From Alphaproteobacteria bacterium (lineage in GTDB: Bacteria > Pseudomonadota > Alphaproteobacteria > UBA7879), in NCBI GenBank assembly GCA_965178295.1, contig CBCXTT010000003.1:88114-152113 (forward strand): a stretch of DNA of 64,000 bases, read 5' to 3'. Each line of letters begins with the position of its first letter. Positions within the stretch are counted from its first letter, which is position 1. Below the pieces are notes generated by a model. The model saw only the letters and a list, made by a program, of their open reading frames with translations. It ran no database searches and was not told the origin of the DNA. Below, piece after piece: positions 34,861-37,403 of this stretch. Made by a program: the position numbers and the translations under genes.

Positions 34861-35922
34861 TTATTTTTGTATGGTCGTAATCGTTTTTAATAGTCTAAAG
34901 GCGACAGTATAGGGATCAGCATTTGCTCCGGGGCGTCTATCTTCAAGGTAGCCATATCCTTTTTCTGCCACATGGTTTGGAATGCGTATGGATGCGCCTC
35001 TGTCAGAATATCCAGCTTTAAAAGTATGGATGCTACATGTTTCATGCAAGCCTGTCAGTCTTTCTTCAAGACCGGCGCCATAAACTGCAACATGATTTTT
35101 ATGGTGATGCTCTAAATGTTCTAAGTATGAATTAATTGCAGCCCTTCCTGTTTCTGGGTGACGTGTTTCTTTTGTAGAAAAGTTTGCATGCATACCTGAG
35201 CCGTTCCAATCGCCCTGGACAGGCTTATTATCGAACGAGACGTGAATGCCGTAACGCTCGCTCAAACGATTCAGTAACCAACGTGCTATCCACGCTTGAT
35301 CAGATACGGATAGCATATCATTCGATTCATAGACGTCCCCTCGATAGCCAATTTGATATTCCCATTGTGCAGGCATAACTTCTGCATTCATTCCATAATA
35401 TAAGAGGCCCGCATCAATACAGGCTCTTGCATGGTCTTCCGCCAAGTCTCTTCCCAAAATTTTCTCTGACCCCACACCGCAGTAGTATGGCCCTTGAGGG
35501 GCTGGATATCCATATGCAGGCCAGCCAAGGGGGTGTTTGTTATTAAAAAACGTATATTCTTGCTCGAAGCCAATCCAGGGTTGGTATTCTTCCTGCACTC
35601 TGCTCATGAGCTGTACCAGATGTGTGCGTGTGTTTGAGGGATGAGGCCTGTTTTGAGATGTATAAACCTCGCATAAGACTAGATATGCATTGTGGCCTCG
35701 AATAGGATCTGGATATATCGCCACAGGCTTTAAGACGCAGTCAGAATTTTCACCTGTTGCTTGATTGCAAGAAGATCCATCAAACCCCCATTCAGGGCAT
35801 TCTGAAAGGTTTATAGGATCTTGATTGGATAAAAAAACACGCATTTTGGATCGGATATTTTGAACGGGACTTGTGCCGTCAAGCCATATATATTCCAATT
35901 TTAACGTATTATTTTTGGCCAT
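34861..35922 (-). CDS. glnII: Glutamine synthetase type II (eukaryote-like GSII)
   Basis: MAKNNTLKLEYIWLDG… N-terminus and overall similarity to rhizobial GlnII; 353 aa. Confidence 0.85.
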   Translation of the reverse strand: MAKNNTLKLEYIWLDGTSPVQNIRSKMRVFLSNQDPINLSECPEWGFDGSSCNQATGENSDCVLKPVAIYPDPIRGHNAYLVLCEVYTSQNRPHPSNTRTHLVQLMSRVQEEYQPWIGFEQEYTFFNNKHPLGWPAYGYPAPQGPYYCGVGSEKILGRDLAEDHARACIDAGLLYYGMNAEVMPAQWEYQIGYRGDVYESNDMLSVSDQAWIARWLLNRLSERYGIHVSFDNKPVQGDWNGSGMHANFSTKETRHPETGRAAINSYLEHLEHHHKNHVAVYGAGLEERLTGLHETCSIHTFKAGYSDRGASIRIPNHVAEKGYGYLEDRRPGANADPYTVAFRLLKTITTIQK

Positions 35923-35924
35923 AA

Positions 35925-37403
35925 TTACGTTGCTTTTTCGCGGGCTAATTTAGTGAAGCGTTGATTCAAGGCTCCAACCGCTATGACCCAGCATATGATG
36001 ATCAATACAAGAATAATCGCTAAGTAGGGGGCTATCATAAGCTGGGTGCCACCAACAATAATGAGCAAAATTTGCTGTAAGGCAGATCCGCCTAGCTTCC
36101 CCACACGCCCACTGAGAACATCAATAGCAGCCTTGCCCTTGATTTTTAATTCAGCGTCCAGTGGAATGTACGCCATCTCTCTCGTTGCATTGAAAAAGCT
36201 GAATTTTGTGGACCTTGCAGATAGGTTTTGAATGAGACCCATCCAACTTGATGCAAGTATCGGACTCATCCCAACAACGCAGGTTTTTAAGAAAAATTCT
36301 CCGTATAGTGTGAGTCCAAAAAATAATGTGCTCGTTATGAGCATGACAATAGGAGTCACCAAAGCACTTGCATACCAACTAAATTTACGTACTACATTTA
36401 CACCAATGATGCCTGTTACAAACATTACTCCTGCTAGCCACAGATTAAAATCACCCATAAAATCACTGTATAGACGTTTGGTTGGGAACATAATCTTTAG
36501 CTGACTTTTCCACGTAATTTCCACAATGTTTATGGAGATATTGTATGCAATAGCGAGGATGGCTATGTAAACCAAGTAATCGGATTTAATGATGTGTTTG
36601 AAGCTTTCAAACAAGGACAATTTTATTTCCATGTTCTTATGCACTTTGCCATGCTCCGGGTGATAGCGTTGGGCATCAGTAACTACATGTGCGTTCACCC
36701 AGTGGTAAATGCACATCACAATCACGCAATTTAAAACCACAACACCCATCATGATCTGGAATATCACAGACCACTCAAGATCTAAGCGGTTTAGATATTT
36801 TGTAAGCCCGCCTGCAGCCATCATACCAAATGCACTAAATGTACCATACATCATATAAAAACGCTTGGCTTGTTGAACGGGGGTGATTTGATTAGCAAAC
36901 TGCCAGAAAAGCAGAGTGAGCACAACCGCTGCCCACATTTCTGAAAAAGCATAAAATAAGGTGTATACCCAATATCCGATCATAGGAAAAAACCACTTGA
37001 GATGAGGATGTATGGTTTGAAGCTGATTCAGTGTTTCAGGGGACATGTTAAGCAAGATACGATTAGGGTATAAAACGAAGGCAAACAGAGCATATACAAG
37101 TGCAAACGTTGTGATTATACCGTAGAAAAGCGTGCGTTGTCGGAGCCTATTAGACAACCAGGCGTAAAGCATGACAAAAGCAATGGAGACCGGGAAAACA
37201 ACCCACATCTTTATAAAGCTTATTGTTTCAGCCCCTGATCCATGCGATGCAACAATGAGTGTGTCCTTTGTATTGTGCACAAGCCAAAAGTTAAAGATTA
37301 TAAAAATCTGCATAAAGGCCATGGGGAAAAACTTGGAGAACTCGGTGCGATGAATGGGGAATAAGCGAAGTCGAAGCTTTGAAGAAAAATTTGGCTGAAT
37401 CAT
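35925..37403 (-). CDS. tlc: ATP/ADP translocase (nucleotide transport protein; Tlc/NTT, AAA family)
   Basis: 492 aa with 12 predicted TM helices. The N-terminal region …FPIHRTEFSKFFPMAFMQIFIIFNFWLVHNTKDTLIVASHGSGAETISFIKMWVVFP… matches the conserved Tlc signature. Its stop is 2 nt from the glnII start. Confidence 0.8.
   Translation of the reverse strand: MIQPNFSSKLRLRLFPIHRTEFSKFFPMAFMQIFIIFNFWLVHNTKDTLIVASHGSGAETISFIKMWVVFPVSIAFVMLYAWLSNRLRQRTLFYGIITTFALVYALFAFVLYPNRILLNMSPETLNQLQTIHPHLKWFFPMIGYWVYTLFYAFSEMWAAVVLTLLFWQFANQITPVQQAKRFYMMYGTFSAFGMMAAGGLTKYLNRLDLEWSVIFQIMMGVVVLNCVIVMCIYHWVNAHVVTDAQRYHPEHGKVHKNMEIKLSLFESFKHIIKSDYLVYIAILAIAYNISINIVEITWKSQLKIMFPTKRLYSDFMGDFNLWLAGVMFVTGIIGVNVVRKFSWYASALVTPIVMLITSTLFFGLTLYGEFFLKTCVVGMSPILASSWMGLIQNLSARSTKFSFFNATREMAYIPLDAELKIKGKAAIDVLSGRVGKLGGSALQQILLIIVGGTQLMIAPYLAIILVLIIICWVIAVGALNQRFTKLAREKAT

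Follow-up and report, generated by a model that had tools for sequence, protein, structure and literature searches.

The DNA analyzed here is a 64,000-nt stretch (64 kb; the window) of contig CBCXTT010000003.1 from an alphaproteobacterium. The genome was examined over this stretch, and all positions refer to it. Two adjacent genes on the minus strand are the subject. The first, tlc (35925-37403), is a 492-aa open reading frame (ORF) for an NTT/AAA-family nucleotide transporter, probably an ATP/ADP(+Pi) exchanger. The second (34861-35922) is a 353-aa ORF for a type II glutamine synthetase (GS) of the alphaproteobacterial GSII subgroup. The tlc TAA and the GS ATG are separated by 2 nt, tt, at 35923-35924 of the same strand. 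The junction is gcaacgTAAttATGgcc, with the codons GCA ACG TAA tt ATG GCC, and it has neither room for a terminator nor a Shine-Dalgarno (SD) sequence. Upstream of tlc lies a 130-bp divergent intergenic region (37404-37533), beyond which a plus-strand gene for a secreted protein starts at 37534. Downstream of GS, a 588-bp region (34273-34860) reaches the stop of a convergent repeat-protein gene. A first-pass annotation, made before any comparison with other genomes, had placed both ORFs exactly here; the 2-nt junction that it reported is confirmed, as is its 130-bp divergent region, which runs up to the plus-strand ORF at 37534. It had also called the divergent neighbor a repeat-protein gene. 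Repeats are indeed present, but the ORF itself encodes a secreted protein, and a frameshift separates the repeat part from it. Neither tlc nor GS has a second copy within the 64-kb window.

The arrangement is not peculiar to the window. tlc followed by GS, in the same order and on the same strand, is found in five lineages: the window, L001/L002, L173, L003-L005, and L171 (L numbers denote compared loci and P numbers compared proteins). Across the linked lineages, GS identity is 62-75% and Tlc identity 60-87%, with Tlc full-length in three; several of the relatives are short contigs. L001/L002 are closest, with Tlc 87% and GS 75% identical to the window proteins, and the two genes overlap by 8 nt (ATGGATAA). 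In L173, where Tlc (P0129) is 63% identical, the spacer is 19 nt, with the SD sequence AAAGGAG, and the GS N-terminus, MRQVFLEYIWLDGAKPVSKMRSKA, lies at the contig end. In L003-L005 (Tlc 60%, GS 63%), the spacer is 28 nt with the SD sequence GAGAGGA, and a hairpin plus T-run stands directly behind the GS stop. L171, a marine GOS contig, has a GS (P0004) of 62% identity behind a 75-nt spacer with the SD sequence AAGGAG; the 28-aa fragment encoded upstream of it matches the final 24 positions of the Tlc subclade profile. Thus, the adjacency first noted in the window is conserved in relatives.

The pair also outlasts its surroundings. The window and L001 are syntenic, sharing the series thymidine kinase, fast-evolving secreted protein, tlc, and GS. 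The flanks of L003 are entirely unlike those of the window and L001, and this difference implies that the pair has been kept beyond background synteny. Both points bear on a neutral account, in which the two genes are co-transcribed, or simply neighbors, through shared ancestry, with no selected link between nucleotide import and glutamine synthesis. Such an account does not lead one to expect that the pair persists while both flanks differ. Nor does it readily explain that no spacer in the five lineages falls outside −8 to +75 nt and that in two of them the genes are 2 nt apart or overlapping, as is typical of selected operons. What speaks for neutrality is taken up below.

A candidate promoter lies in the 130-bp divergent region. 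The element CTTGCTCAAACAATGAGAAACATGCTA (37438-37464, minus strand) combines a −35-like CTTGCT with an extended −10-like TGcTA and ends 34 nt upstream of the tlc ATG. The pattern CTTGCY-N12-15-CATGNTA has this single match in the window, 0.13 being expected by chance. A block of the form CTTGC(T/C)-N13-14-CATGNTA is found about 55-90 nt upstream of the tlc start in the window, L001, L173, and L003, and likewise in L166, L167, and L168, where tlc is not linked to GS. When 175 loci were scanned with CTTGCY-N12-15-CATGNTA, matches upstream of tlc were obtained in L001, L003-L005, L166, L167, L168/L169, and L173, plus one stray hit. The corresponding intergenic region of L001 is also 130 bp long and can be aligned with that of the window in its tlc-proximal part. 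From this conservation the element is predicted to act as a promoter. Its presence at unlinked loci marks it as a signal of tlc itself, with GS added to a transcription unit that was already there. Transcription start within the 130-bp region, as proposed in the first-pass annotation, is probable, since the conserved element is located there and is unique in the window.

In rhizobia, glnII is NtrC- and sigma-54-dependent. A search of 37404-37533 for the sigma-54 motif TGGCAC-N5-TTGCW, allowing up to two mismatches, gave no match, and the window-wide count of the motif is at chance level. Unlike rhizobial glnII, then, the window GS has no sigma-54-type promoter upstream.

To summarize the operon evidence, the occurrence of tlc followed by GS in five lineages, together with the element conserved upstream of tlc, gives good support to a bicistronic operon, and the two genes are probably co-transcribed. 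Translation may be linked as well. Anti-SD pairing upstream of the window GS start amounts to −0.3 kcal/mol, and few of the 28 genes compared pair as weakly. Given the 2-nt spacer and the missing SD sequence, re-initiation on GS after tlc is probable, and translational coupling from tlc to GS is proposed.

The identity of the transporter is secure at the family level. PF03219 scores 529 bits against Tlc (cutoff 21), with residues 7-483 on profile positions 8-491 of 491, and TIGR00769 scores 475.8 bits, above its cutoff of 387.2. The generic MFS_1 model reaches 19 bits only; that is, the protein groups with the nucleotide transporters and not with generic MFS proteins. Among solved structures, Tlc matches the only two NTTs in the PDB from end to end: 9j3n (Chlamydia Npt1, labelled 'ADP,ATP carrier protein 1') at 404 bits over residues 8-484, and 9j3j (chloroplast NTT1, AtNTT1) at 347 bits over residues 13-489, with about 40% identity to AtNTT1. 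The subclade profile built around Tlc scores 484 and 414 bits against the same two chains, entries that presumably stem from Lin et al., Nature 2025;641:797. Profile scores and structural matches therefore agree with the identification made in the first-pass annotation. With the class I NTT/Tlc/Npt1 proteins (Chlamydia Npt1, AtNTT1, and the Holospora and Caedimonas NTTs), the window Tlc shares fold and family over its full length. Its subclade is nevertheless separate from the named NTTs: members are at least 51% identical to the window Tlc, whereas hits outside it, all named ones included, are at most 49% identical.

Four charged residues of AtNTT1, K155, E245, E385, and K527, are important for nucleotide transport (Graf et al., PMC7969357 supplement). 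In the alignment with the 9j3j chain, where a single numbering offset gives K, E, E, and K, they correspond to K65, E155, E295, and K436 of the window Tlc, and these four are invariant in an alignment of the 12-member Tlc subclade. HoNTT and CcNTT, both from Holosporales, are listed as ATP/ADP carriers (PMC7969357), and like them the window Tlc belongs to a Holosporales-like endosymbiont. Most likely, Tlc is an ATP(in)/ADP+Pi(out) exchanger.

The NCBI gene call for the window Tlc (P0124) has 465 aa and starts at M28. Residues 1-27 are conserved among homologues (M1, R11, F15, P16, E21, K24, F25), so the 492-aa start is preferred, and the NCBI call is probably 27 codons too short. The gene call at L001 gives a tlc shortened to 353 aa, with a spurious 84-aa antisense ORF where its 5′ part lies.

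The second gene encodes a glutamine synthetase, as the first-pass annotation had it: domains, signatures, and structural matches all agree. Both Gln-synt_N (PF03951, 55.9 bits) and Gln-synt_C (PF00120, 48.9 bits) score above cutoff. The signatures FDGSSCNQATGENSDCVL, from residue 47, and KPVQGDWNGSGMHANFS, from residue 233, match the FDGSS beta-grasp and KP...H...S ATP-region patterns (PROSITE PS00180 and PS00181), respectively. All 16 hits of a PDB search are type II enzymes, the best being Streptomyces coelicolor GlnII (4bax, 375 bits). Yeast GS (3fky) follows with 344 bits, and eukaryotic enzymes from yeast, plants, and animals span 328-344 bits. In the alignment with 4bax and 3fky, the EQEYT, NAEVMPxQWE, and RIP/EDRRP blocks are all matched, and no block that binds metal or substrate is lost. 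The enzyme is thus predicted to be a catalytically intact glutamate-ammonia ligase. The label 'eukaryote-type' used in the first-pass annotation is valid for the family, but the nearest relatives are bacterial GSII enzymes, as the scores against 4bax and the eukaryotic enzymes show, and GS shows no sign of having come from a eukaryote or, recently, from another foreign source.

The GlnII equivalog model NF041605 gives 424.5 bits, under its cutoff of 500, and the relatives P0003 (424) and P0018 (464) likewise fall under it. We therefore regard GS as a GSII-family enzyme of a distinct alphaproteobacterial subgroup rather than a curated GlnII equivalog. This subgroup is large and mostly alphaproteobacterial, its members carrying the NCBI name 'glutamine synthetase beta-grasp domain-containing protein'. 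In the order of its domains and in its catalytic motifs, GS matches Streptomyces and rhizobial GlnII (4bax, NF041605); the differences are the score below the NF041605 cutoff, the promoter type, and a 7-residue insertion relative to 4bax, located after the QWE(Y/F)QIG motif. The insertion was considered as a marker of Tlc-linked enzymes and rejected, as the whole alphaproteobacterial subgroup has it. Tlc and GS themselves are ordinary new members of known families.

Our overall reading, to which we assign a probability of roughly 0.6, is that tlc and GSII form a two-gene operon of single origin that is expressed from the tlc promoter, the benefit being co-regulation. Transcription would start about 35-60 nt upstream of tlc, at a sigma-70-type promoter (−35 CTTGCT, extended −10 TGcTA) that would belong to tlc and predate the pairing, and GS would be read from the tlc mRNA. 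In the window lineage, the junction would have been compacted to 2 nt, with ribosomes that end tlc probably re-initiating on GS. The pairing would have arisen once, in the ancestor of the small clade; at least five lineages would have retained it, while loss or rearrangement would account for the others. As for the benefit, glutamine synthesis from host ammonium and glutamate would be turned on when the bacterium grows inside its host and gains access to host ATP. The ammonium would come from the host, and glutamate possibly from peptide import, aminopeptidase P, and aspartate aminotransferase. Imported ATP would not be channelled in any dedicated way into GS. This physiological rationale is conjectural, and co-regulation in intracellular life is a safer reading than ATP fuelling GS.

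Several observations weigh against the operon reading and must be set beside it. First, at least five sister tlc lineages (L166, L167, L168, L170, and L006), with Tlc at 55-65% identity, have other genes or none behind tlc, and no GS there. The gene downstream of tlc encodes glycerol-3-phosphate dehydrogenase in L166, Bax1-I in L168, and COQ9 in L170. GS remnants were sought behind the five unlinked tlc genes, for example in an 890-bp gap in L167, and none was found at E<1. It follows from these five lineages that the linkage is dispensable. Second, the smallest GS clade that holds the linked enzymes has five members (72% bootstrap; neighbor-joining tree of the best 120 GS hits), four of which lie 3′ of tlc, and the fifth, that of L172, stands behind yebC. 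Third, a consensus promoter and terminator scan gave no more hits than in shuffled sequences. Fourth, an SD core is present in 12 of the 28 window genes; with fewer than half of the genes so equipped, a missing SD at GS speaks only weakly for coupling. Fifth, tight partners such as rpiB and lepA stand next to tlc elsewhere, and a conserved partner is therefore no proof of a metabolic link. Sixth, the substrate and transport direction of Tlc are predicted by homology, since the sequence of an NTT cannot reveal them: K527 is also kept in NTTs with broader specificity and is not diagnostic of substrate class (PMC7969357), and the title of a paper cited in a Holosporales review (PMC11909080) ascribes an extended substrate spectrum to a Caedibacter NTT. 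For these last two reasons, ATP/ADP exchange is a best guess rather than demonstrated.

The first two points, together with the fifth, make up the case for neutral synteny. The pairing occurs in one subclade only, and at least five sister lineages lost it and kept no remnant; at 10 chlamydial loci the gene behind tlc is lepA, which has no obvious functional link to it; and relatives have GS in other places, behind yebC in L172 and behind pepP in L174. Against the persistence of the pair between unlike flanks and its tight spacing, we consider the neutral account a serious competitor, with perhaps one chance in four of being right, yet our preference remains with the co-regulated operon.

How the pairing arose can be partly read from the trees, all of which are neighbor-joining trees of moderate support. 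In that of the Tlc subclade, the window, L001, and P0129, all linked, group together (84% bootstrap). The linked P0130 groups with the unlinked P0125 and P0131 (82% bootstrap), so that linked Tlcs occur on both sides of the split. Scans of genomes and metagenomes with the Tlc subclade profile yielded about 160 further tlc loci, all at 55% identity or less, and none had GS within 8 kb. Only one small clade has the pairing. Its history is most simply told as a single origin there, with the pair kept in at least five lineages and lost or relocated in several others; two independent origins may also be considered. Joint acquisition of tlc and GS, an idea raised in the first-pass annotation, finds no support: the promoter-like element also stands upstream of tlc genes without GS, and in relatives GS occurs in other contexts. 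A recent horizontal transfer of the pair was rejected, there being no compositional signal (GC content is 41.2% for tlc, 43.6% for GS, and 42.7% for the window). GS P0012 and Tlc P0131, on contigs of 67,223 and 67,222 bp, were tried as a further pair on one contig and rejected, as their contigs differ.

Two of the other GS contexts deserve description. At L172 (2-1710, plus strand), GS starts 8 nt after a yebC-family gene. The YebC encoded there is only 42% identical to that of the window (13715-14461), and we conclude that GS joined a different tight pair in a more distant organism. At L174 (7927-11092), an alphaproteobacterial contig with a GSII gene, GS is directly 3′ of the gene for aminopeptidase P (M24, pepP). 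The window has a pepP orthologue at 41212-42885 on the minus strand, 43% identical to that of L174, which lies on the same strand as tlc and about 4 kb upstream of it; a thymidine kinase gene and the secreted repeat-protein gene stand in between. This suggests an insertion into an older pepP-GS neighborhood.

The company kept by tlc in other clades was also surveyed. At 74 of 137 testable loci, a same-strand ORF starts between −30 and +200 nt from the tlc stop. lepA follows tlc in the 10 chlamydial loci at 82-148 nt, an MFS transporter gene follows it in 4 loci, and rpiB follows it in 9 loci (L008-L011, L013, and L087-L090) at −23 to +10 nt. The last group belongs to a sister alphaproteobacterial Tlc clade, and some of its loci are the same contig from two collections; the partner is identified as ribose-5-phosphate isomerase B by PF02502 (173 bits). 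The recurrence of lepA, rpiB, MFS, and GS partners indicates that tlc often heads a clade-specific gene pair. The tlc-rpiB pairs resemble tlc-GS in that a gene of small-molecule metabolism sits on the same strand at tight spacing and is kept in one Tlc clade. They differ in the partner and in the Tlc clade, which is 43-47% identical to the window Tlc, and have no GS within 8 kb. tlc-rpiB is itself a tight clade-specific operon that combines nucleotide import with pentose-phosphate metabolism.

What kind of organism carries the pair matters for its interpretation. Genes of the window code for peptidoglycan enzymes, cytochrome c, CcmF, SCO1, and coproporphyrinogen oxidase, for an Opp-type peptide ABC importer, for aminopeptidase P and aspartate aminotransferase, and for kinases of thymidine and thymidylate. 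The Ffh encoded here shares 75% identity with metagenomic proteins but only 59-60% with those of Ca. Nucleicultrix amoebiphila, Caedimonadaceae, Paracaedibacteraceae, and Ca. Odyssella. The named relatives of Tlc come from Holosporaceae, Paracaedibacteraceae, and Chlamydiae. The source is a Holosporales-like alphaproteobacterium, a relative of bacteria that live in amoebae, presumably host-associated or intracellular, and it retains genes of the respiratory chain. Its glutamate could plausibly be supplied through the Opp importer, aminopeptidase P, and aspartate aminotransferase.

This gene content bears on the view advanced in the first-pass annotation, namely that ATP scavenged from the host fuels glutamine synthesis. 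In its strong form, the bacterium would depend on host ATP, imported ATP would drive ammonium assimilation, and the GS by-products ADP and Pi would leave through the same exchanger. The operon structure and its conservation are compatible with such direct coupling, as are the ATP/ADP exchanger hallmarks of Tlc and, at L003, an SDF-family symporter, possibly a glutamate/dicarboxylate carrier, encoded just upstream on the same strand. But cytochrome c, CcmF, and SCO1 in the window indicate that the bacterium probably makes its own ATP. The match of ADP and Pi to GS is not specific either, as any ATPase yields these products. The tlc-GS linkage has been lost repeatedly, and the L003 symporter has no NCBIfam hit, so its glutamate role is only putative. 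Nothing beyond adjacency favors fuelling by host ATP: the organism has its own respiratory genes, the linkage was lost, and an NTT may also work in the opposite direction or move other nucleotides. We consider direct energetic coupling improbable.

The details of L003 (2796-7074, plus strand) are that genes for the SDF-family symporter, a DUF1467 protein, Tlc, and GS follow one another on one strand, and that the symporter scores 119 bits with PF00375. Should glutamate be its substrate, a single gene cluster would provide for the import of everything that GS consumes.

A still less probable reading takes the transporter not for an ATP importer but for a protein that exports ATP to the host or moves other nucleotides or NAD+, with the GS pairing serving mutualistic nitrogen recycling plus energy supply. 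A comparable idea is found in Graf et al., who speculate about ATP/ADP exchange between a respiring endosymbiont, 'Ca. Azoamicus ciliaticola', and its host; the NTT concerned clusters with Holosporales/Caedibacter-related sequences, and by their account it might carry other nucleotides (PMC7969357). The respiratory genes of the window organism accord with it. Opposed to it are the best structural matches of Tlc, which are canonical ATP/ADP exchangers, the conservation of the four critical residues, and the listing of HoNTT and CcNTT as ATP/ADP carriers; moreover, no feature of the window favors export. We thus retain the operon with co-regulation as its benefit.

The remaining features of the locus concern its flanks. 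The 588-bp region behind GS (34273-34860) contains small ORFs only, with no Rfam match and no canonical terminator, and an Rfam scan of the whole window gave no match. The transcript presumably ends within this region. In L001, the equivalent gap holds a gene for an MscS-family channel; an MscS remnant was sought in the 588-bp gap and not detected. The convergent gene beyond it (32932-34272, plus strand) encodes a second repeat protein, with 7.3 copies of a 108-bp unit (33244-34032) at 99% identity, and has no Pfam or NCBIfam match. An antisense ORF at 32903-34090 was rejected as a repeat artefact.

On the other side, the secreted-protein ORF (37534-38724, plus strand) begins with a signal-peptide-like N-terminus, and L001 encodes a 492-aa protein of 34% identity at the corresponding place. 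The window ORF enters an array of 12.7 repeats of 96 bp (38676-39894) and then stops, and the frame goes on as ORF 38648-40180. The first repeat contains a run of eight A (A8, about 38711-38718), whereas the run is A7 in every later unit. The segment 37534-40180 is one gene split by a frameshift, and the A8 frameshift could be a sequencing error, a pseudogene lesion, or slipped-strand phase variation. A thymidine kinase gene occurs within a few kb upstream of tlc in three subclade lineages (window 40445-41056, plus strand; L001 458-1075; L168 868-1455), the window and L001 enzymes being 83% identical. tlc and thymidine kinase may form a loose nucleotide-salvage neighborhood.

As the first-pass annotation suspected, the arrangement appears to be undescribed. 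Our literature search found no earlier description of a tlc-GS arrangement and nothing joining GS with nucleotide transporters or energy parasitism. The Holosporales genome literature that was searched contains no mention of glutamine synthetase, and no operon in which an NTT gene heads GS, as in the window, was found described for any characterized NTT. Since the components are ordinary, the arrangement lineage-restricted, and its loss repeated, the impact is likely to be modest unless there is a real physiological coupling. A bolder proposal is that tlc-GSII is a dedicated module marking a new clade of protist-associated alphaproteobacteria, in which transcription and translation tie the making of glutamine from host ammonium, by assimilation or recycling, to nucleotide exchange with the host. 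We hold this to be a long shot; if true, it would describe a nitrogen-for-energy bargain and not plain energy parasitism.

NTT transporters are a hallmark of energy parasitism, and little is known of how their expression is wired into endosymbiont metabolism. The locus described here is a conserved operon that would place a nitrogen-assimilation enzyme under the tlc promoter, and the CTTGCY-N12-15-CATGNTA pattern gives a defined cis element for promoter studies in an uncultured Holosporales-like clade. As a hint, not proof, it offers a concrete regulatory link from host-derived energy to nitrogen metabolism.

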